Below are positions 956-10,406 of a stretch of 64,000 nucleotides of DNA, in pieces. The position numbers and the translations under genes were made by a program. The notes under the pieces are model-generated. The model saw only the letters and a program-made list of their open reading frames with translations, had not been told where the DNA came from and did no database searches. Position 1 is the stretch's first letter; each line of letters begins with the position of its first letter. Origin of the DNA: Thermodesulfobacteriota bacterium (GTDB lineage Bacteria > Desulfobacterota > Desulfarculia > JACQYL01); contig CAXXLZ010000001.1 in the NCBI GenBank assembly GCA_963675595.2, forward strand, positions 704,001-768,000, read 5' to 3'.

Positions 956-1708
956 TTACTCTCCATGGATCGGGGTCACTTGACGCAGTAGGAAAGTGCC
1001 GTCGCCTTCATCCTCCAACTCGGCTCCATAGGCCGAACCGTCGGATACAAAGGCGTCGGGGATATGCAGGATGCCGTTCTCGTCCAAATACGGGATGGCT
1101 CGCGCGCTGAATTTGTCGATGGAGGGAAGAAACTCCAGATTGACAACGGCCTGGGGCCGAAGAGCGCTTTGGAAAAAGGATTTCTGCTCGTCGGTCGCTT
1201 CTCCCGTTTTCACCAGGGTACGGTAGGTGAAAAACTCTTTGGGATAAAGGGTTTCATTCGCTTTGACTTTCCAAACCATCCCCGTTGATTTCTGAACGAA
1301 GAAAAAGACCGCGTCCCCGATGGTGAGATAGTACGGGCCTTTGGCTCCCGTTACGAACGCGAGATCGGAAGGGGACCAGCCCATCGCATCGACGAACAGC
1401 TCTTCGGCTCCGCGGGTCGTCCAACCTGTGAAGATATTGATGTCGTCTCTTGGAACGACGCCGTCCGAGAATTGAGCCGCCAGCAACTGAAGCGCCCTGA
1501 AGCAAAGGCATCTGCAAATGCAGACTTTGGTCTTACCGTCTTCGACTTCCGTTTTAACCTGGTCCAAATCGTAGGTGGTGATGACGTCGTTTGCCTTAAC
1601 CCGGATCTGATTCCCGGTGATGGTTTCGCCGTGAACCGAGGGCGCCATGTAAACGGCCACGGCCAGTATCGACAGCGCGATCCATCCTTTCATCATTTTC
1701 TTCGACAT
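956..1708 (-). CDS. Secreted Cys-motif protein, FmdE-like putative metal-binding protein
   Basis: AAGGAG RBS before ATG 1708; signal peptide MSKKMMKGWIALSILAVAVYMAPSVHG; VCICRCLCFRAL...RDDI motif reminiscent of FmdE-like domains. Confidence 0.55.
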   Translation of the reverse strand: MSKKMMKGWIALSILAVAVYMAPSVHGETITGNQIRVKANDVITTYDLDQVKTEVEDGKTKVCICRCLCFRALQLLAAQFSDGVVPRDDINIFTGWTTRGAEELFVDAMGWSPSDLAFVTGAKGPYYLTIGDAVFFFVQKSTGMVWKVKANETLYPKEFFTYRTLVKTGEATDEQKSFFQSALRPQAVVNLEFLPSIDKFSARAIPYLDENGILHIPDAFVSDGSAYGAELEDEGDGTFLLRQVTPIHGE

Positions 1709-1768
1709 GACTGACTCCTTGCGTAATGGTGAGCAGTGACAATACGACCCGGGCGGTCTGCGCCGCCG

Positions 1769-1820
1769 AAAAACGAAAAGGCGTAACATGGACGCATGTT
1801 GCGTGCCCCTGTTACGCCTT
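1769..1820 (-). terminator. Intrinsic terminator-like hairpin in the 5' leader of the 956..1708 gene
   Basis: AAGGCGTAACA...TGTTACGCCTT 11-bp stem with paired interior, followed by TTCGTTTTT on the minus strand. Confidence 0.55.
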
Positions 1821-1872
1821 CAATTTCTTCGCGCCCGCCGCGGGCCGAAAATCGTAAGACGTCCCGATGATT

Positions 1873-1931
1873 CTTAGAGATATCTAAGTAACTAAGAGCG
1901 ATTAAATCGCACGGTGCGATGTTCTTGTCAA
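1873..1931 (-). promoter_or_regulatory. Putative sigma70 promoter with palindromic operator(s)
   Basis: TTGACA (minus, 1926-1931); palindromes ATCGCAC-G-GTGCGAT (1906-1920) and CTTAGA-GATA-TCTAAG (1873-1888). Confidence 0.45.
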
Positions 1932-2052
1932 GGTTTTTTCAGGCCGTTCAAGCGGATTGAGAAAAAGAGTGAATGCCTGATCGCAAGGCCGACACAGCGT
2001 ACGAACGTGAAACGGCGGGAACGGAACCCACGAAACTTTCGACGGCGGACTC

Positions 2053-2331
2053 TTAATATTCGACCGTGCGTCGGCCTTGTCGGCAGTGGGTGTCTTTCTC
2101 CCGTTCGAAACGGCTCAAGCCCTTGGGGAGAGATTTCTTGAGCCGATCAAAGGCTCTCCGGGCTCTTGGAGAGGAGGAAACCACCAAGTGCGTTCCCGGG
2201 ATGAGGAAAATCAGGCCCAAGGGTACGGGAAGGATATATAGAGGGATTCCGACGATAATCAAGGTCACACCCAAAATGAGTTTGACACGAGGAGAAGGCG
2301 ACCACCACCGGCGAATGTTTTGTTGATCCAT
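2053..2331 (-). CDS. Small two-helix membrane protein (PGPGW-like)
   Basis: LILGVTLIIVGIPLYILPVPLGLIFLIPG hydrophobic hairpin followed by a basic tail. Confidence 0.55.
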   Translation of the reverse strand: MDQQNIRRWWSPSPRVKLILGVTLIIVGIPLYILPVPLGLIFLIPGTHLVVSSSPRARRAFDRLKKSLPKGLSRFEREKDTHCRQGRRTVEY

Positions 2332-2585
2332 GGGGAGCGGACACGTCCGTTTATGACAGAGTTGAAGAATCAAGTACACTCCCAGTATGCACACCGGTTG
2401 TTGCGGATGGGTGACGAAAGGATGAAAGTTAAGCGGGAGAAGGGAAAGACTTTTCGGAGGGCGCTCCGTCTTCGCTGCGTGCGTCGACGTGAAGCTCGGA
2501 AAAACGCGGACCCGACCACGGATAAGGCTCTAAAGAACCTGTTCCGGTTGACCGAACGGGCAATGCACTCCGCCTGAAGGGGGGA

Positions 2586-3731
2586 CTATCCCGCCAGCCT
2601 AGCCGCGTATTCCCGGATGACTCGGGTACGGTCCATGTTGGCCAGGATAAGTTCTTTTCGGATTTCGTAGTCTTCCCAGGCCGGTTGAAAACCCACTTCC
2701 CTGGAAGCCTTAATGGGATCTTGCTCACCGGGGCTCCTGAGCTTTTCCGCCATATGGGTGTCGTCTCCCATAAAGACCAGGAGGGGGCGGTGAGAGGGGC
2801 CGCGTCGCTTATTCTTGCCGTTGAGGACGGAGATGAGGAATTTGGTATACTTTCGGGACTGAGGATTCCATACCTCGTAACCATCCACGTCGTACTCCGC
2901 CAACAGAATCGGCCAGAACTGCTCGGGGTGGGGGATAACGATTCCTCCTCCCAAGGACCTGGCTTCCTCGATGACTTCCGACGTCCTGTAGAAGTAACGA
3001 AGCGGGAACTCCTCCTTGACGGTTCTTTTCACGGCCGTCAAAAACGTTTGAGCTCTGTCGATCCATGGGTCCCCGTAGTCGGCGCGTAGTCCGTCGAAGA
3101 AATTTCGAAGCAGCTTGTTCTTGATGGACTCCGGCGGCACGGAACTTTCATGGCGCTGGAGAAGTGTTTCGATTTTTCCGACGTAGACCTGCACGAAATG
3201 GATGAGAGTCTCGTTGGCCCCGGTTTCCTTGGCGGCGAACTCGATGCGATGTGCCACGGGGCCGGTAATGGTCTGCATGAATTCGTAGAGCTGAGATGAA
3301 CGGTATTTGAAGGTGTGTCGGAGCATCGACCTGAGCACGTCCGCATGTTCCAGTTTGGGGGTTTCGAAATGCAGCAGCAATTGAACCTTCTGATTGAATC
3401 CCCTCGAATAGCAGTCCACCTCCACGCCGGTGTATCCGTTCCACGAGGTCAACGCGTTGTGTTGGGTCGGAATAATCAGATCAAGCTGCTTGTGGGGAAA
3501 ACAAGCGGCGATGCGCTTCCGGATGAGTTCCTTCGGGACGAATTCGGGATGCCAGTGGACCGCTAGTACCGACTCTTGTTTGGGGAAGGCATGGCCGACG
3601 GTTACAACTCGAGATTCTTCCTCGGGGCTGAGTTCGGTGGATACCACCCTGAGGAAGAGCCGTTCATCGTCATCGGAGATCTCCTCTGAGACCTTGTCCG
3701 GAACCAAAGATAGCCAATCGGTCTTATGCAC
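2586..3731 (-). CDS. GAK-system-associated protein with PHP-like phosphoesterase C-terminal motifs
   Basis: GGGIVIPHP, DGYEVWNP and MGDDTH match PHP-family motifs; extra HWHPE and TQHN; GAAGGAG RBS; downstream of the GAK genes on the same strand. Confidence 0.7.
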   Translation of the reverse strand: MHKTDWLSLVPDKVSEEISDDDERLFLRVVSTELSPEEESRVVTVGHAFPKQESVLAVHWHPEFVPKELIRKRIAACFPHKQLDLIIPTQHNALTSWNGYTGVEVDCYSRGFNQKVQLLLHFETPKLEHADVLRSMLRHTFKYRSSQLYEFMQTITGPVAHRIEFAAKETGANETLIHFVQVYVGKIETLLQRHESSVPPESIKNKLLRNFFDGLRADYGDPWIDRAQTFLTAVKRTVKEEFPLRYFYRTSEVIEEARSLGGGIVIPHPEQFWPILLAEYDVDGYEVWNPQSRKYTKFLISVLNGKNKRRGPSHRPLLVFMGDDTHMAEKLRSPGEQDPIKASREVGFQPAWEDYEIRKELILANMDRTRVIREYAARLAG

Positions 3732-3866
3732 GGAGAACTCCTTCCACCTGAATCGTAGGTGTTAAGGGGGCATACCGACGAGATTCCACCAAAGAAAGGA
3801 CCGTAGAAGTCACCACGCAATGTCCGTCCACCGTGGTCGCAACCGCACCGACCTTTTTGGTCGGAG

Positions 3867-4412
3867 TCACTTGTGTTCGCGATGGCAGTGACCTCTGATT
3901 TTATCGATCTCGTCTATCGTGCCGACGAAAGTCTCGATATCCCCTTCGCTGAATGTTGTCCCCAACGTTTCGCATGCCTTGATGAACGGGTCATAGTAGT
4001 TTTCGCCCCGCTCATGAAAGCTAATCATGGTCCGGGCATCCCGCAAGAAACGATCGACCTCGGAGGCCCGGGGAAGCAATCCTGTGTCCCGGCTTTTTCG
4101 AATCGTCCTGAAGTTCTTCTGCATCCTTTTCTTCAGGGCCTTGTACCCGATGACCTCACGTGAGGAAAGCTCATCCCCATCTTCCTCGTCTTCGAGCGGC
4201 TCTTCCGTATCGCGAACTCCCGAGGATTTCGTCCTGATTTTCATGACGAAACCTTCCGCTTCCTTCTTCACGATGAGCTTGAGTTCACGGAGGTCCTGCA
4301 CGGGAATGAGGCCCAACTCCGTCCCGGTTTGTGTTGCGTCGACCAGCACGGCGACGAGTCCGGCGGCCTGTTCCGGGGTCAGGAGTTTTTCGATTTTGGC
4401 ATCTTTGCCCAT
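3867..4412 (-). CDS. GAK system XXXCH domain-containing protein
   Basis: Helical C-terminal domain ending RGHCHREHK; position in the operon. Confidence 0.8.
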   Translation of the reverse strand: MGKDAKIEKLLTPEQAAGLVAVLVDATQTGTELGLIPVQDLRELKLIVKKEAEGFVMKIRTKSSGVRDTEEPLEDEEDGDELSSREVIGYKALKKRMQKNFRTIRKSRDTGLLPRASEVDRFLRDARTMISFHERGENYYDPFIKACETLGTTFSEGDIETFVGTIDEIDKIRGHCHREHK

Positions 4413-4431
4413 GGGGTCGTCCTCTCAGGGA

Positions 4432-5622
4432 TCAGGTTAAAGAAAGGAGAACGGGAACAAGGAGCTTTTCGTCGATCAGCGGTGTGCCGGCTTCGCCGAC
4501 GAGGGGACAACTCAATATTTGCACACCCAACCCTCTCAACTTTTCCCGATCCACGCCTCCTGGATATGCGTCGTGCCTGTCGTCCACAATCACGAGATTC
4601 AACACGTCCCGGAGTGAAATTCGATCCGGATCGTCTTGTATCAAGGTGTTTGAGAGTATCCTGACCTGTTCGGAAAGATCGAGGCCGTAAAGTTCCGGGT
4701 CGTGGCCCAAATTGGGAATGAACACCTTGGGGCAGGGATTCCGGCTCACGGCCCGGCCGACTCCTTTGGGCAGCAGGTTCGCGATCAAGCTGGAATAGAA
4801 GCTTCCCATGGGATAGCAGATCAGTTCCGCCTGGGCGATAAGTTCCTTCATCTTCGTACGCAACGGAACCTCCAAGGGACCCGTTTCTCCGCACCCGTCA
4901 CTGAGAAAGACTCCCCTAATTGCGGAGGAGATCGGGGGTGCTTCCTTCCCGGTGAGCAGGTGCTGCCCTACCAGAATATTCCCGTCTTCGAGCTCTGCGG
5001 CAAGGTGCACGTCTCGGTTCACCACGGGTCTCACCGTGCCTAAGACTCGAACCAGCTTGGAGAAAATAAAGATCACCGTATCGAAGCGACGGCGATTTTC
5101 CAGGTAACCGGCCGTAAGAATCAGGTTGCCTATGCTCGCTCCGGCCAAATCGAAGTCCACCGGCATGGAGTCTCGAAAGAGCTGAAGATGGCGCCGAATG
5201 ATTTTTCGCATGGGGTCGGGGATGCGGGACACAAGAGGATGGCGGCCCCGAATCATCTGTTCGAGTTCATTGGAGAGTGCTCTCCTCGGGTCGGTCTGGG
5301 AAAGGCGGTAGGCGAACAGCTCAAATATCTCGGGATTGCCGTGCAGGCTTCGGTCGGCGAGCGCCATGAGGCGGTTGCGCACATCTCCGATGGCGGGCAT
5401 GTGAAACGCCCTACGCAGTTTTGCGGAACTGCCTCCCGAATCGAAAGGTGTAATGACGTGAATGGAGTTGTGCGTGAAATGAATCAGTTCCCGGCTGACA
5501 TCCTTAAGGGCGGTTCCCCCGCTGAAGAACAGGATTCGAGGTCCCAAGTCGGGGCTCCGGGCGTACAAAGCCGATTTCACGGGGTCGGGGATCCTAACTC
5601 TCCGACTGAGTCGAATGTACAT
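4432..5622 (-). CDS. GAK system CofD-like (YvcK/UPF0052 family) protein
   Basis: FFSGGTAL, TPFDSGGSS, GDVRNRL, SIGNLIL, YPMGSFYSSL motifs. Confidence 0.9.
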   Translation of the reverse strand: MYIRLSRRVRIPDPVKSALYARSPDLGPRILFFSGGTALKDVSRELIHFTHNSIHVITPFDSGGSSAKLRRAFHMPAIGDVRNRLMALADRSLHGNPEIFELFAYRLSQTDPRRALSNELEQMIRGRHPLVSRIPDPMRKIIRRHLQLFRDSMPVDFDLAGASIGNLILTAGYLENRRRFDTVIFIFSKLVRVLGTVRPVVNRDVHLAAELEDGNILVGQHLLTGKEAPPISSAIRGVFLSDGCGETGPLEVPLRTKMKELIAQAELICYPMGSFYSSLIANLLPKGVGRAVSRNPCPKVFIPNLGHDPELYGLDLSEQVRILSNTLIQDDPDRISLRDVLNLVIVDDRHDAYPGGVDREKLRGLGVQILSCPLVGEAGTPLIDEKLLVPVLLSLT

Positions 5623-5658
5623 GGGACGGTCCTGTGGATTGAGTTCGGCGGAGGCTCT

Positions 5659-6747
5659 CTAAACGAATTCGGATTTGGCGATGGAGATGCAGGTGGCGGC
5701 CGCCTGCTCGAAATGAATTCCTCCACTGAATTCCCAAACGGAACACCGCGACAGTAATTCTACATAGTCCTTGAGAATCGGTTCGGCGACCGGACAAGCG
5801 GGTGAGGGCTGGAAGAAGAGGCCGGTGGATTTCATGAGGGCCTGCATCAGGTCGGGGCGATCAGCGGGGTTCATCCTTTCCACCGCCAGAGGGGTCCGGT
5901 CTCGTTTCCAGCTCAGGATGATCAGGCAGTCCATAGGTGCATCGAGCACGAATCTACCGGGTCCGAAACACCGATCTATCGGAACGTCGTATTTGTGTTC
6001 CACATCCCAGAGTTCTTCAGAGGGGAGCTTGGAGAAGCGTTCCCAGTCTTCCGACGGCATCACGCTTCTGAGCTTAGGATTGTTCATCGCCGTTCCCGGG
6101 TTGATTCTCGGGAATTTCACTACGCCGTGCATCACCGGTCGATCGTCCTCCAACCGGATCACCAACCGGTCGTTGCTGACGAAGATCGCGTCCTTGCCCA
6201 TCAGGTGCATGGCCAGGGTGGACTTACCCGCCCCGGAGAAACCGGCTATGGCCAAGCCTTTGTTCTCCAGGATGACTCCCGAAGCATGACCCAGCAGTCC
6301 GCCCTTGCACAGCAACCATTCAATGTAACGGTTGTTGATGAAGTTGACTACCTGGTTGATGTTATCCAAACAGGGGCCCACGGCCAGTTGTTCTTTTTCG
6401 CCGAGTACGAACAGCATACCGGTCAACCGCTTTCTCACCACACGACCGCCGGGGAGATCGGCGTATTCTTCCTTGATCTTGGATTTGCCGGGGTCCGGCT
6501 CTTTGATCTTCAGCGGCAGCTTCGGATTCGGGGGGAGCGCTTCGTGCACCGTGATGGTGATCTCGGGGGTTGCCCGGCCCACGGCGAAGTCGCCGAAATA
6601 GTCGAGAAGAGCGCGCGCGACTCGGCTGTCGTTGACCGCCACTTCCAACACACACGTACCGAAACGCAAATAGAGCGAGTCCACGGTGGGGAAGCGCTCA
6701 CGGAACACACGGGCAATAGTGGGTACGTCTCCTGCAATTTGATTCAC
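5659..6747 (-). CDS. HprK-related kinase B (GAK system)
   Basis: HASGV...AGFSGAGKST P-loop and VSNDRL, an HprK/PEPCK-like signature. Confidence 0.85.
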   Translation of the reverse strand: MNQIAGDVPTIARVFRERFPTVDSLYLRFGTCVLEVAVNDSRVARALLDYFGDFAVGRATPEITITVHEALPPNPKLPLKIKEPDPGKSKIKEEYADLPGGRVVRKRLTGMLFVLGEKEQLAVGPCLDNINQVVNFINNRYIEWLLCKGGLLGHASGVILENKGLAIAGFSGAGKSTLAMHLMGKDAIFVSNDRLVIRLEDDRPVMHGVVKFPRINPGTAMNNPKLRSVMPSEDWERFSKLPSEELWDVEHKYDVPIDRCFGPGRFVLDAPMDCLIILSWKRDRTPLAVERMNPADRPDLMQALMKSTGLFFQPSPACPVAEPILKDYVELLSRCSVWEFSGGIHFEQAAATCISIAKSEFV

Positions 6748-7619
6748 GAGCCCAACCTTCCCAAAGTATATTGGACAAACATGCGTGCAACGTCCATATT
6801 CCTTGCCGCCTGAATTCCCCTGAATCCTCCGAAGGCGGAAACCTCGAAAACCACGGGACCCTCTTCAGTGAGCGCGACGTCCACACAGGTGAAATCCAAT
6901 CCGAAAAGGCTCTGGGCATTCCGGGCCAAGGTGATGATGTCCTTGGGGGGATCAAAAGGAGCATACTTCCCACCGGATCGCGTCGTGGTGTTCCAGGAGG
7001 CCTCATTTCCGCAACGAGCATAAGTGGTGAGATATTCACCACCCAGAAAGGCGATCCCCAAGTCTCTGCCCTGGTGGTCGATGCGTTTCTGAATGTACAT
7101 AATGGGGTGTTCGCTCTTGAACACGTCGATTTGCCGCTTTGCCTCGGGTCCGTCGGCAATGACGATCATTCCTTTGGCCTTGGAGGAGTACAGAGGCTTG
7201 AAGACCGCCTCGCCGTATTCCCTCACCGCGTTGAGTGCCGCATCGGCTTCTTCGGTGACGGTGGTGGGGGGCATGGGGATCCCTGCCAAGCCGAGGGTCA
7301 CCGTGCAGCTCAAACGGTCCAGCACTCGGGTGATATTGATGGGAGAGGAAAACATCTTCACTCCGTTTTCGTAAAGAAAACGGAGGATTTCGAGGCGATC
7401 CAGAAGATCGGGAGAATATCTGGCGCCTATCTTCTTGATCATCAGGGCGTCGAAGCTCGAAAGATCCAGTTCTTCGTATAAGACCTTCCCTCTGTGCAGG
7501 TCCAACACCACTTTTTCCATATCTATGAGATAGCGTTGTCCGGTCAGTTCCCCGACAGTGTCGGCCAGTTTCTCGGACGACCATCCCCCGGGGGTACCGA
7601 CGACTCCGATTCTTGTCAT
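6744..7619 (-). CDS. GAK system ATP-grasp enzyme (RimK-like ligase)
   Basis: VFKPLYSSKAKG, YIQKRI, RDLG, FTCVDVA, VVFEVS RimK/ATP-grasp motifs. Confidence 0.88.
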   Translation of the reverse strand: MTRIGVVGTPGGWSSEKLADTVGELTGQRYLIDMEKVVLDLHRGKVLYEELDLSSFDALMIKKIGARYSPDLLDRLEILRFLYENGVKMFSSPINITRVLDRLSCTVTLGLAGIPMPPTTVTEEADAALNAVREYGEAVFKPLYSSKAKGMIVIADGPEAKRQIDVFKSEHPIMYIQKRIDHQGRDLGIAFLGGEYLTTYARCGNEASWNTTTRSGGKYAPFDPPKDIITLARNAQSLFGLDFTCVDVALTEEGPVVFEVSAFGGFRGIQAARNMDVARMFVQYTLGRLGS

Positions 7620-7642
7620 TTTCGACCCTCTGCTCGGTAGTG

Positions 7643-9283
7643 CTAGTAATAAAGTACGCTTTCAGGAAGCCGAAATGTTTCGGCGGGTCGATCCCTCTGA
7701 GCGATCAGCTTTTCCATCAGGAAGTGCGAGCGCAGCAGCATTTCCTTCGCAAAGGACTGATTCAGTTCAAATCGGGTCGACGTGAAAAAGGATCTGGCCA
7801 ACGCCAGAGTCATTCGAAACTCGAAAGTAACGTCTTGGTTCTCACGGGCATAATCACCGAAGAACGAGTAGAAACGTTTTATGGTGCCGTTCAGACGTTT
7901 TCGCAGCTCCGGTTCAAACACGGGGAGACGAAAATTGGAGACCAGGAAAACGGAGGCGTCCTGCACGTAGTCGGCTCTTTGAGAACGATACAGGTCAATG
8001 AATCGAATCTTTTTCCGACTGTAATCGTACACCACGTTGCTGATGTTGAAGTCTCCGTGGATAAACACCGTGAAAGGTGCGGGGACGTTTCCCTCCAATT
8101 GGGCGCACTCCTCGACGAGCCGACGTGATGATGGTAGGTCCAAATCGTCGATTCCGGCCTGAGGCCTCAGAGAGGCCGGGTGCACTTGAGAAACGCCGGA
8201 AAGCCGGGATTTGAGCTGTCCAAAGTAATCCGTGGAAACGGGCCCGTTGGTTCGCGTGAGTCTCCATGCCTGTAGAAGCGTTCTCTGGAGCGCTTCGCAG
8301 GCTTCGTAGAGGAGATCGTCCCCCGAGGTCAGCACCACTTCGTCCAAAGTCTGCCCCGAGATGAATTCAACGAGGAGGGAGGCCTTGTCGTCCTGTTCAT
8401 GATAACCGAAGACGCGGGGTGCGATTCCGGGCAGAATCGCGTCCCATTCTCGGATGTTGTTTTTTTCCTTCAAAATTTTCTGAACGTTTCCTTCTTTGAA
8501 CACGCCTTCGGATTCGGTGCCGGATTCCAGCTTCTGATGCACCTTGCTGATTCTGCAACCGGAACGCGATCCCCAGATGGCCTGAAAATCGATGTCCGAT
8601 AAGGGGCCGTCAAAACCCGACTTGGAGAGGGTCTCCCGAAGAGCTTCGAATTGTCTGATTTTAATTCGCTCTCCCAGGATCGAGAATAAGAGGGCCTCGC
8701 CGATGTTTAAGAGGGAGTCTCCGATCCGTTCCAAATACCGGAAGATGAACAGGGTGGTCAGCAGATTGGGGATATCTCCTGATTGTCTCAGCTGGTCCAT
8801 GATCCAGTCGAAGCTGGTCTTGTACATCTTGTCCAGGGTCAATTCCACTTTGCAGATATCCAAAGCCCCGGATAAGTCCCTGGTTACGTAAACGGGAAGG
8901 ATTTTGGAGAGCGCGGTCCTGATTTCCGAAAACATTTCCTTGGTATCGAGCTTCTGGAGCGGAGAATGATCGGCAAGATAATCCGTTTGTTTGGCTATGT
9001 TGACAAAGAAGTCCGCAATCCTTTCCAAGTTGACACTGATGACATGTATGGCCCTTATTCGCTTTATGTGCTTATCCGTCAATCCCGAGGAAGAGTGAAT
9101 CATAGAAAAGCATTTGTCCTCGACGCGATTCTTCAGATTATCCACATAGTCATCTTTGGAAATTATTTTGGATATATCGTGTTCGTTTCGGTTAAATAGT
9201 ACACCAAGCGTAAGGTTCAATTGTGCTTGAACCTCAATGACAATGAATTCCATTATTTCTTCTATGGTGTCTAATGATATCAT
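7643..9283 (-). CDS. PhoU domain fused to aminoglycoside-phosphotransferase-like kinase (GAK system)
   Basis: Two PhoU repeats (LERIADF, YLERIGD) followed by kinase motifs HGDFNISN and FIDL. Confidence 0.85.
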   Translation of the reverse strand: MISLDTIEEIMEFIVIEVQAQLNLTLGVLFNRNEHDISKIISKDDYVDNLKNRVEDKCFSMIHSSSGLTDKHIKRIRAIHVISVNLERIADFFVNIAKQTDYLADHSPLQKLDTKEMFSEIRTALSKILPVYVTRDLSGALDICKVELTLDKMYKTSFDWIMDQLRQSGDIPNLLTTLFIFRYLERIGDSLLNIGEALLFSILGERIKIRQFEALRETLSKSGFDGPLSDIDFQAIWGSRSGCRISKVHQKLESGTESEGVFKEGNVQKILKEKNNIREWDAILPGIAPRVFGYHEQDDKASLLVEFISGQTLDEVVLTSGDDLLYEACEALQRTLLQAWRLTRTNGPVSTDYFGQLKSRLSGVSQVHPASLRPQAGIDDLDLPSSRRLVEECAQLEGNVPAPFTVFIHGDFNISNVVYDYSRKKIRFIDLYRSQRADYVQDASVFLVSNFRLPVFEPELRKRLNGTIKRFYSFFGDYARENQDVTFEFRMTLALARSFFTSTRFELNQSFAKEMLLRSHFLMEKLIAQRDRPAETFRLPESVLYY

Positions 9284-9284
9284 G

Positions 9285-9554
9285 TCATTTAGTACTGATA
9301 GTTAGTTTGTCCTTATCGTCGTTACCTGAGACGTTTTTCCATGATATTCTCAGACTTAATCTGCTTCTGTCCCCTTCATTCTTTGCCTTTATTTTAATCT
9401 TAAGCAAATCTTTTGGAAAAAGAATGATTTCATTTTGCTCTGAGGTGAAGGTTAGCTTACCACTCTCAAAACCATGGATAAGAGATTCCAAGTATTTCTT
9501 TATAGTCTCGGAGTCTTGATAGGATTCAAATTCAAATTCTTCCTGTTTGGGCAT
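9285..9554 (-). CDS. amphi-Trp domain-containing protein
   Basis: Short protein with an alternating amphipathic strand ending LSLRISW; first gene of the GAK operon. Confidence 0.85.
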   Translation of the reverse strand: MPKQEEFEFESYQDSETIKKYLESLIHGFESGKLTFTSEQNEIILFPKDLLKIKIKAKNEGDRSRLSLRISWKNVSGNDDKDKLTISTK

Positions 9555-9989
9555 TGAGAATTCCCTTTATTCCATTAGGTCTTATCAGAAAAATATGCTG
9601 AAATGAATCATCGTGTCAAGTCGGCTCAGGAAATGTAACAAATAAGAAAGGTTTGCATCAATCAACTCAGGATCCGGGGGATTTCAGAAGCAGGTGCTTT
9701 CATTTCCAGATGATGATTGCAGGTAATGTTAGTCGACTCTATTCAGTACTTGGTAAGAGTCGAGAAGGCACCGCGAACGGCATCCTGTCAAGAGTCGGTG
9801 GGATTTGGGAGAGTAAGGTTTCACCTTTCGGTCACCGAGAACGATCATGCGGGAATACCCGCAGGAAGTCCGTCCGAGCCGACGACGATTTCGGAGTGAA
9901 AGTGAGATGGGAAGATGGGGTGTCCACCTCGTTCGTCGGTCCGTAACCGGTTGTGAGAAGCAGGGATGTGGGGCCGAATATTCGGGAGG

Positions 9990-10406
9990 TCAGGTTTCGA
10001 CTTCCGTCCCGTCCTCCTCGGGACTTTCCAGGTCCGGCAATGGTACTTCGGGTGGCGACTCCTTCTCCGCTTTGTATTTCTTGGCGGGCGGACGAGGGAC
10101 GTATCGTTCCCCGAAGTCTTCATAAATCCGGGCGGCGCATTCAGGATTGTGTCCGACGAAAAGCTTGAATGAGAAGAACCCCTGTTCCTGCAGGTCTTCG
10201 TCCTGGAGCCGCAGAAGCAATCCCCTCACTTCGTCGGCGCTTCGCGCCATTTCCATACGTGCGGGAAAAAACGAGCCGTCCAGCAATTGGATCACCGCGT
10301 TGGAGTAATTACGGTCAATGTACTTGCCGAAGTTCTCCTTGGTGGCCGGCTGCATCGCGGCACGGAACTTAACGAGCTTGGCAACTTCTTCCCAGGGACC
10401 CACCAC
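9990..10406 (-). CDS. Hypothetical protein
   Basis: GGAGG RBS before GTG; protein-like composition with Pro/acidic tail; follows bamD. Confidence 0.65.
   Translation of the reverse strand: MVGPWEEVAKLVKFRAAMQPATKENFGKYIDRNYSNAVIQLLDGSFFPARMEMARSADEVRGLLLRLQDEDLQEQGFFSFKLFVGHNPECAARIYEDFGERYVPRPPAKKYKAEKESPPEVPLPDLESPEEDGTEVET

Follow-up and report, generated by a model that had tools for sequence, protein, structure and literature searches.

A survey of the GAK (grasp/amphi-Trp/kinase) system, starting from a copy at positions 2053-9554 of a 64,000-nucleotide stretch of a Thermodesulfobacteriota genome (contig CAXXLZ010000001.1, positions 704,001 to 768,000; hereafter the window), suggests from sequence comparison that this gene family is tied to the Pho regulon in Desulfobacterota, either by a Pho-box-like repeat in front of the operon or by a position behind pst, phoU or phoB genes. 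We consider it highly probable that GAK has a role in phosphate homeostasis and probable, with rather less assurance, that it runs a phosphate write/erase cycle; our preferred account in full is put forward tentatively: under Pho-regulon control, enzymes gathered on amphi-Trp proteins would build up and break down a small molecule carrying several phosphates. The GAK gene set and its curated models were already known. New here are the Pho-box link, the replacement of the putative eraser enzyme in one lineage, the loss of the RimK residues R189 and N262 from the ATP-grasp enzyme, and the make-up of the XXXCH protein as an amphi-Trp domain joined to a predicted cytochrome-like bundle. The added value lies in these family-level findings, and the window locus itself is ordinary.

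The window locus is a genuine, intact, permuted but ordinary member of the known, uncharacterised GAK system. Five adjacent genes exceed the cut-offs of the curated TIGRFAM models for GAK (Table 1), which bears out the membership proposed in the initial annotation. As that annotation had also described, its span holds eight co-oriented open reading frames (ORFs), all on the minus strand, and those from amphi-Trp through the PHP-like gene are tightly spaced (intergenic gaps of 1, 23, -4, 36, 19 and 135 bp). Relatives keep the co-orientation of the genes and usually show the order XXXCH, PHP, amphi-Trp, PhoU-kinase, ATP-grasp, HprK, CofD, often with a second amphi-Trp gene; the window locus resembles them in gene set, with all five modelled genes adjacent, but is circularly permuted, with XXXCH and PHP last and no second free amphi-Trp gene. 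The eighth ORF, a small membrane gene that had been counted into the operon, lies outside the GAK system: it has no homologue in any of 80 GAK loci or of the three plasmid loci described below, no family match in Pfam or NCBIfam, and begins 191 bp beyond the PHP-like gene (254 bp to its ATG), behind a terminator-like hairpin at 2520-2505 that is weak evidence alone (19 such sites against 10.1 in shuffles).

To describe the family, GTDB genomes were scanned with an alignment of 23 ligase (ATP-grasp) sequences, which brought up at least 584 relatives. Of these, the 80 closest, nearly all Desulfobacterota-like, were examined, and per-gene counts are given for informative loci, defined as those with enough flanking sequence. 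The PhoU-kinase gene stands beside the ligase in 70 of 72 informative loci (78/80 in the raw count) and the PHP gene in 61 of 64 (including two reduced loci, L053 and L058; raw 64/80), followed by amphi-Trp near the ligase in 64/68 (raw 69/80), HprK-related kinase B (HprK-B) in 64/70 (raw 72/80), CofD-like in 55/63 (raw 60/80) and XXXCH, the least constant gene, in 40/56 (raw 45/80). Because L053 and L058 hold only PHP, PhoU-kinase and ligase genes, and L010 and L055 add only amphi-Trp to the same trio, these three genes form the minimal core in the sample. Four loci are without both HprK and CofD-like genes, and in one protein (P0124) the ATP-grasp enzyme is fused to HprK-B. PhoU-kinase and PHP-like genes are core GAK genes in Desulfobacterota-like loci, and NCBIfam 20.0 holds a GAK model for neither, though both are more constant than CofD-like and XXXCH.

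Several individual loci in this survey stand out. Desulfamplus magnetovallimortis carries both a full GAK locus (L022, with ppk2 and Nudix genes nearby) and the reduced locus L058. Full operons also occur in genomes labelled Ignavibacteria and Zixiibacteriota (L039, L040), which group together inside a ligase tree dominated by Desulfobacterota. Three GAK-like ATP-grasp proteins (P0129, P0137, P0165) are divergent, have degenerate catalytic loops and are possibly inactive paralogues.

The link to phosphate is seen in flanking genes, which include pstSCAB, phoU, phoBR, pit with DUF47, a Na/Pi transporter gene, alkaline phosphatase and psiE, and also phoH, ppk2, phnC, arsC, mgtE and mgtA (families assigned from 121 of 286 candidate flank ORFs, plus sets of 16 and 18 proteins). 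A pstB gene lies within 10 kb of GAK in 11 of the 80 loci and some phosphate gene in 19; at an assumed density of one or two pstB genes per 4 Mb, fewer than one would be expected in the 1.22 Mb covered. The head of the GAK operon follows pstB-phoU within about 200 bp in 6/80 loci. On the ligase tree (a quick tree), loci next to pst genes are scattered and require seven changes, at least four of them forced by supported branches. Pit and DUF47 genes lie inside the GAK cluster in two loci (L057:2815-4824 and L072:10920-14856, the latter also with transposase genes), where they replace hprK between ligase and cofD.

Upstream sequences point the same way. A plain scan with the Escherichia coli Pho box separated GAK heads poorly (2/60 at a score of 10.5 or more), and a recurring TGTTA repeat was noticed. 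The pattern TGT(T/C)A-N6-(T/C)GT(T/C/G)A occurs within 300 bp before the first GAK gene in 10 of 36 regions (shuffles: mean 0.28, maximum 3), with a signal only at period 11; to arrive at the 36 regions, 15 close kin were removed from the 50 loci that had a usable 300 bp and the window was added, six loci with an unclear first gene having been excluded earlier. Across the 1.22 Mb there are 57 matches, of which, by our own classification, 32 precede GAK heads, 11 precede a pstS, ppk2, phoB, pit, Na/Pi-phoU, phoH, phnC or ugpB-like gene, two precede PHP-GT4 genes (described below), two mgtA, and ten lie elsewhere. A position weight matrix (PWM) built from 13 non-GAK sites gave 13 of 35 GAK heads a score of at least 12 bits, where 0.23 would be expected, and six more a score of 10-12 bits, an enrichment that is partly circular since the pattern was written after the first scan and the matrix sites were chosen with it. 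The repeat fits the consensus (c/t)GT(n)AC of the D. vulgaris PhoB repeat, validated by electrophoretic mobility-shift assay according to the accessible text of PMC3333781.

Besides this circularity, several observations weigh against the proposed Pho-regulon cycle. Sixteen of the 35 GAK heads score below 10 bits, about seven of them behind pst, phoU or phoB genes. The GAK promoter of the window is without a Pho box (best PWM score 3.9 bits, p 0.28 against shuffles), the pattern has no match in the window, and the long ORFs that were scanned elsewhere in it include no phosphate gene. Pho-box matches in the alphaproteobacterial loci are weak (11/14 in two of three, a score reached in 2-6% of 300-bp windows), and the acidic PhoU motifs are degenerate in all three PhoU-kinases there. 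No GAK gene appears by name in the tables searched of a G20 phosphate-limitation study (PMC5193443) or in the DvH fitness tables searched (PMC10102598). In Dissulfuribacter during ordinary growth, an amphi-Trp protein ranks within the top 20 by abundance according to PMC13490349, which, if its gene is a GAK member, sits badly with expression confined to starvation.

Three further kinds of neighbour recur. An arsC gene lies near GAK in 9/80 loci; in L004 and L038 it overlaps the PHP start, carries a Pho-box-like repeat and heads the GAK operon. Mg2+ importer genes adjoin GAK in 7/80 loci, either mgtE after cofD (L005, L006, L011, L074) or an mgtA-like gene (L017, L035, L042), and Pho-box-like repeats occur at two of these seven, a hint that phosphate and magnesium control may be coupled. 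A protein of about 800 aa, with an H-x-H (PHP-like) region at the N-terminus and a GT4 glycosyltransferase fused to it, is encoded near GAK in about 12/80 loci (L018, L019, L021, L022, L031 at 3742-6183 on the minus strand, L039, L041, L042, L059, L062, L066 and L069), several with a Pho-box-like repeat; this PHP-GT4 gene is a candidate for a phosphorus-free glycolipid or envelope enzyme.

The erasing half of the proposed cycle would fall to the PHP-like gene, which matches no Pfam or NCBIfam family; its 1608 homologues are, where named, Desulfobacterales hypothetical proteins, and a search with its alignment found no solved relative by sequence. A PHP barrel fold is supported by an AlphaFold model (predicted local distance difference test score 92, alignment of 110 sequences), whose top Foldseek matches were RNase AM, BAD_1165 and Cv1693 (E 2.5e-5 to 8e-4). 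By VIA the model was closest to BAD_1165 (Z 16.4, root-mean-square deviation 3.6, 248 residues aligned) and RNase AM (Z 15.6), whereas polymerase PHP domains reached Z 10-12 and CpsB/YwqE, which are protein-tyrosine phosphatases, Z 5.6-6.2; the ESM Atlas returned unnamed clusters of its own family and PHP clusters at 0.83-0.85, taken as a lead only. Residues H59, H61, H91, E104, H121, H268 and H326 are invariant in 62/62 sequences and D324 in 61/62, and these putative ligands of a trinuclear metal site correspond, by motif order and not by coordinates, to H13, E72, H83, H198, D255, H45 and H257 of RNase AM. The predicted protein shares the barrel and a helical insertion with these TrpH/YciV-type enzymes (Z 15.6-16.4) but is only 16-18% identical to them, with an N-terminal arm of 50 residues and an insertion that is larger than theirs; compared with RNase AM, the D20 position is not Asp (P66, for which the invariant E63 may substitute) and TQH stands in place of TDH. 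Cv1693 was reportedly solved with AMP and Pi, and a second phosphate in RNase AM is described as buried by arginines that lie between its barrel and its insertion (PMC9410882, accessible text). Given this precedent and the invariant basic residues of the GAK insertion (R144, K204, K206, K235, K239), a substrate carrying more than one phosphate is plausible by analogy. Longer fused forms of the PHP protein and of the kinase domain were sought and none was found, which is weak evidence.

The association of the PHP gene with GAK, part of the initial annotation, holds in Desulfobacterota and breaks down in Rhodobacterales. A plasmid search gave five alphaproteobacterial matches, of which three (Rhodobacterales, including Tritonibacter) were examined. 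All three loci contain PhoU-kinase, ligase, HprK-B and amphi-Trp genes and neither PHP nor XXXCH; Tritonibacter has no CofD-like gene, and that of the other two is divergent. In the operons of all three are a branch-1 histidine phosphatase, nearest to PGM/CobC, and a calcineurin-like phosphoesterase, joined in one by a Nudix gene. That Rhodobacterales replace PHP by two unrelated phosphatases supports an eraser role for PHP, and with it the write/erase logic first proposed for the operon. Neighbouring LMWPc genes were considered as a second phosphatase and rejected, since they keep a three-Cys arsenate-reductase pattern.

On the writing side, the PhoU-kinase consists of two PhoU repeats and an APH-type kinase, both above Pfam cut-offs. 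Its residues K263, E273, H409-x-D411-x-N413, N416 and D430 are intact and invariant in 73/73 sequences, and the four acidic PhoU motifs are intact in the window protein and kept in about 68 of 70 Desulfobacterota-type sequences. The nearest solved sequences, APH(3') enzymes (E 4e-4), say little on substrate.

The ATP-grasp enzyme shares its fold and, by alignment to RimK, the ATP/Mg residues K141, R202/203, D247/248 and E259/260 (K141, R202, D247 and E259 in the window enzyme; columns invariant in 83/83 sequences) with RimK, LysX, MptN and CofF ligases, and scores below the RimK/LysX/MptN cut-offs (TIGR00768, 101.6/143.4 bits; NF040720, 147/350; TIGR02144, 81/276). It differs from RimK in 83/83 sequences: R189 is replaced by Gly (G188), N262 by Ser (S261), K100 by Arg and R64 by Lys-Lys, with basic residues in the Gly loop and added invariant basic residues K62, K63, R75 and K147. 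RimK R189 and N262 are reported to hold the terminal glutamate (PMC10092738, accessible text), and in PsnB a conserved Arg with such a carboxylate-binding role, which we infer to be the equivalent of R189, is described as critical (bioRxiv 2021.03.09.434688, accessible text). The loss of both residues weakens the F420-like option raised in the initial annotation, taken here as synthesis of an F420- or sarcinapterin-like cofactor or metabolite, with the CofD-like protein forming a phosphodiester from an NDP-activated (nucleoside diphosphate-activated) hydroxy acid and an MptN/CofF-like ligase adding an amino acid. MptN is indeed the ligase's nearest other family (147 bits), the CofD Pfam model matches the CofD-like protein, and the grasp-HprK fusion suggests sequential steps; yet MptN-like proteins keep the DxR and ExN motifs that the GAK ligase is without, and a cofactor pathway would need neither interchangeable phosphatases nor Pho control.

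The CofD-like protein itself also counts against cofactor synthesis, in that its sequence places it closer to YvcK/GlmR than to CofD. Its PDB matches 2ppv, 2o2z and 2hzb (E about 1e-23) and all five at E<=1 are of YvcK/UPF0052 type, with no CofD chain among them, although it stays below the YvcK cut-off of TIGR01826 (Table 1). It shares the YvcK/GlmR fold and the N-terminal GG / D-x-GGS motifs, with the differences of an insertion of about 50 residues and of one Asp kept from the D40-D41 pair (F60-D61) of the GlmR D40-D41-N198 triad; GlmR has been reported as a uridyltransferase (PMC10128056, accessible text). No CofC-type nucleotidyltransferase was found among the clustered or Pfam-scanned flank genes, and the CofD-like gene is missing from 8/63 informative loci and from one of the three plasmid loci. 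Taken together, we regard the F420-like reading as quite improbable.

A protein substrate is the more serious alternative to a small molecule. HprK-B has H154, a Walker A K175-S176 and S191-N192-D193-R194, invariant in 67/67 sequences; its best PDB match is HPrK (E 1.9e-5), and it falls far below the HPr kinase/phosphorylase cut-off (TIGR00679, 18.5/240 bits). It shares the His, the Walker A Lys and one Asp with HPrK and the lasso-peptide kinases PadeK and ThcoK and differs from them in the first Asp of the pair, which is Asn (His-Lys-Asn-Asp, 67/67); no HPr or lasso precursor was found among the flank genes examined. The accessible text of PMC9266682 describes the characterised HPrK relatives as acting on proteins or peptides, and the lasso-peptide kinases as requiring His-Lys-Asp-Asp and as able to polyphosphorylate a peptide Ser stepwise. 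Amphi-Trp protein 1, for its part, has near-invariant F7, S11-x-Q13-D14 and W72, with S11 kept in 57 of 59 copies and in all three alphaproteobacterial ones (Ala in the other two, including L019), and is a candidate scaffold and/or phospho-acceptor. In such a phosphate-responsive protein circuit, HprK-B and/or the PhoU-kinase would (poly)phosphorylate Ser11 of the abundant amphi-Trp protein or a transporter or regulator partner such as Pst, PhoR or the Mg2+ importers; the ATP-grasp enzyme would contribute another modification, and erasing would fall to PHP or to the phosphatases of the alphaproteobacterial loci. HprK-B and Ser11 lean this way, and a near-invariant Ser counts against a small-molecule substrate; RimK and LysX have protein substrates, a calcineurin-like enzyme takes the place of the eraser in Rhodobacterales, and MgtE or MgtA adjoins some of the loci. 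We nonetheless judge the circuit rather unlikely: S11 is Ala in a locus with intact HprK-B (L019), no amphi-Trp gene lies near the PHP, kinase and ligase genes retained in L053 and L058, the four loci noted above do without HprK and CofD-like genes, the first Asp of the HPrK signature is Asn throughout, and the PHP fold is nearer to nucleotide and small-molecule enzymes than to PHP protein phosphatases. The likenesses to APH, TrpH-type PHP, PGM/CobC-type phosphatase, Nudix, YvcK and MptN lean towards a small molecule.

The XXXCH protein is modelled as an N-terminal amphi-Trp-like domain (about residues 5-63; hhalign probability 88, E 3e-6 to amphi-Trp), a disordered linker and a cytochrome c'/b562-like four-helix bundle (90-180). 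Since it begins with such a domain, GAK loci carry two or three amphi-Trp domains. In the bundle K94 and H177 are invariant and C176 is present in 36/37 members, the C-terminus lies four residues past the His, and this spacing is kept in 39/41. Its fold matches are topped by cytochromes c' and b562 and Kusta0087-0088 (Z 11-12, within the generic range for helical bundles), and weak Pfam matches to b562 and cytochrome c' appear in 15/37 and 13/37 members, respectively. XXXCH resembles these class II cytochromes in its predicted four-helix bundle, in an x-x-x-C-H motif close to the C-terminus and in its C-terminal register; unlike them, it has Lys/Arg at the first Cys (K/R-x-x-C-H, no CxxCH) and a cytoplasmic-type amphi-Trp domain instead of a signal peptide. 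From aligned range starts, with no gap assumed, K94 falls at Leu16 of c', residue 7 of b562 and C32 of Kusta, which we take to be distal heme positions; presumably the TIGRFAM text for XXXCH already notes the likeness to cytochrome c'. The pocket may be a His/Lys heme site or a basic pocket for a phosphorylated ligand. The conserved Met97 as sixth heme ligand was dropped, as the aligned ranges put Lys94 there, and a LysW-like C-terminal carrier was rejected, as the fixed C-terminus fits the cytochrome register. When a complex between amphi-Trp and the N-terminal domain of XXXCH was predicted, the result (median 0.30 against a mark of 0.32) was evidence neither way. Directly behind the GAK operon of L024 lies a ParA-like gene followed by a gene for a third amphi-Trp protein (5581-6794), which suggests that cells may position their amphi-Trp assemblies.

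The cytochrome-like bundle with its Cys-His pair also invites a reading in which GAK is not primarily concerned with phosphate status: it would be a module for signalling or storage, gated by redox state or a gas and read through an XXXCH heme, with PhoB control acquired only in some lineages. The absence of a Pho box from the window and many loci and the loss of PhoU motifs in Rhodobacterales would fit; XXXCH is, however, the least constant gene (absent from all three Rhodobacterales loci), the PhoU-kinase fusion is near-universal (3/3 there), and Pho boxes or neighbouring pst genes turn up repeatedly, in separate clades, which leaves this reading very improbable. A similarly small share of probability goes to some explanation other than those considered here.

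We return to the preferred account, a Pho-regulated cycle on a small molecule whose substrate, product and activity are proposals from sequence and structure models. In many carriers, PhoB would induce the operon under phosphate starvation, as the upstream motif and gene order suggest. The PhoU part, with its conserved motifs, may respond to cytoplasmic phosphate or to the Pst transporter and so gate the fused APH-type kinase, which would phosphorylate a hydroxyl acceptor. The ATP-grasp enzyme, to judge from its residue changes, would use ATP on an anionic, probably phosphorylated, acceptor and would not build alpha-glutamyl chains; HprK-B, by family, would add a further phosphate or remove it phosphorolytically, and the YvcK-like protein may supply an optional nucleotide-sugar step. 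PHP, or the two other phosphatases in Rhodobacterales, would hydrolyse the product and return phosphate, with XXXCH as an optional, possibly heme-binding, input domain. The product would serve as a phosphate buffer or signal, making GAK an accessory arm of phosphate homeostasis.

Eukaryotic inositol (pyro)phosphate/SPX signalling uses several kinases, ATP-grasp enzymes included, and phosphatases of unrelated folds. GAK would resemble it as a works-like analogy only, in that a signal of phosphate status would be built by kinases and removed by unrelated phosphatases. In its boldest form, which we consider a long shot, the proposal makes GAK the bacterial functional counterpart of that system: a novel, highly phosphorylated second messenger or store of phosphate status would be primed by the phosphate-gated PhoU-kinase, elaborated by the RimK-derived ATP-grasp enzyme, which without its carboxylate clamp would act as a phosphotransferase and not as a ligase, and extended by HprK-B, and a cytoplasmic, His/Lys-ligated, single-cysteine heme domain of XXXCH would tie in redox or gas signals in sulfate reducers. 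The two systems differ in that neither ITPK1 nor PPIP5K is among the 23 PDB chains matched by the ligase profile (E<=0.001) and no inositol-specific gene is conserved with GAK.

A literature search, with few subscription papers within its reach, found no functional study of GAK. These results give GAK a physiological setting, phosphate starvation and resupply, and with it a directly testable phosphate-homeostasis hypothesis. They redefine the core as PhoU-kinase, ATP-grasp enzyme and a phosphatase, add the unmodelled PHP family, and name both tractable hosts (Tritonibacter mobilis F1926 and Nitratidesulfovibrio strains) and specific residues for testing. Were the small-molecule reading true, a new phosphorus pool or signal would exist in sulfate reducers and marine Rhodobacterales.

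Table 1 Features of the GAK locus in window coordinates; model scores are given as score/cut-off in bits
Feature	Position	Strand	Length	Basis or remark
Sigma70-like promoter candidate (TTGACA, 16-18 bp, CATATT/TATTTT)	9590-9619	-		35-65 bp before amphi-Trp
Amphi-Trp protein 1	9285-9554	-	89 aa	TIGR04354, 70.8/31
PhoU (two repeats)-APH/PKL kinase fusion	7643-9283	-	546 aa	Pfam PF01895 + PF01636
GAK ATP-grasp enzyme	6744-7619	-	291 aa	TIGR04356, 444.2/300
HprK-related kinase B	5659-6747	-	362 aa	TIGR04355, 477.4/200
CofD/YvcK-fold protein, accessory	4432-5622	-	396 aa	TIGR04357, 551.3/340; TIGR01826, 114/196
XXXCH protein	3867-4412	-	181 aa	TIGR04358, 87.1/40
Predicted PHP-fold metallophosphoesterase with helical insertion	2586-3731	-	381 aa	structure model
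Small hydrophobic ORF, outside the system	2053-2331	-	92 aa (from ATG 2331)	hydrophobic stretch

The promoter candidate matches at 10/12 positions and is weak, nine such sites being found against 4.5 in shuffles. Repeats within 1700-10200 look like chance, and an Rfam search of the window gave no match. The other long ORFs scanned, out of 39 in the window, encode mostly housekeeping and anaerobic metabolism functions (CODH, hydrogenase-like subunits, RelA, NifU/NifS). The operon head is AT-rich: the amphi-Trp gene has a GC content of 0.35 and a third-position GC content (GC3) of 0.38, and the 5' part of the PhoU-kinase gene is also AT-rich, against a GC3 of 0.61-0.71 in the rest. Close to the locus, at 956-1789 on the minus strand, lies a gene for a protein of 277 aa that matches no family and has a Cys cluster (CICRCLC) and probably a signal peptide; upstream of this gene, at 1925, is the highest Pho-box-like score in the window, 12.1 bits, which is about what chance would give in 64 kb.

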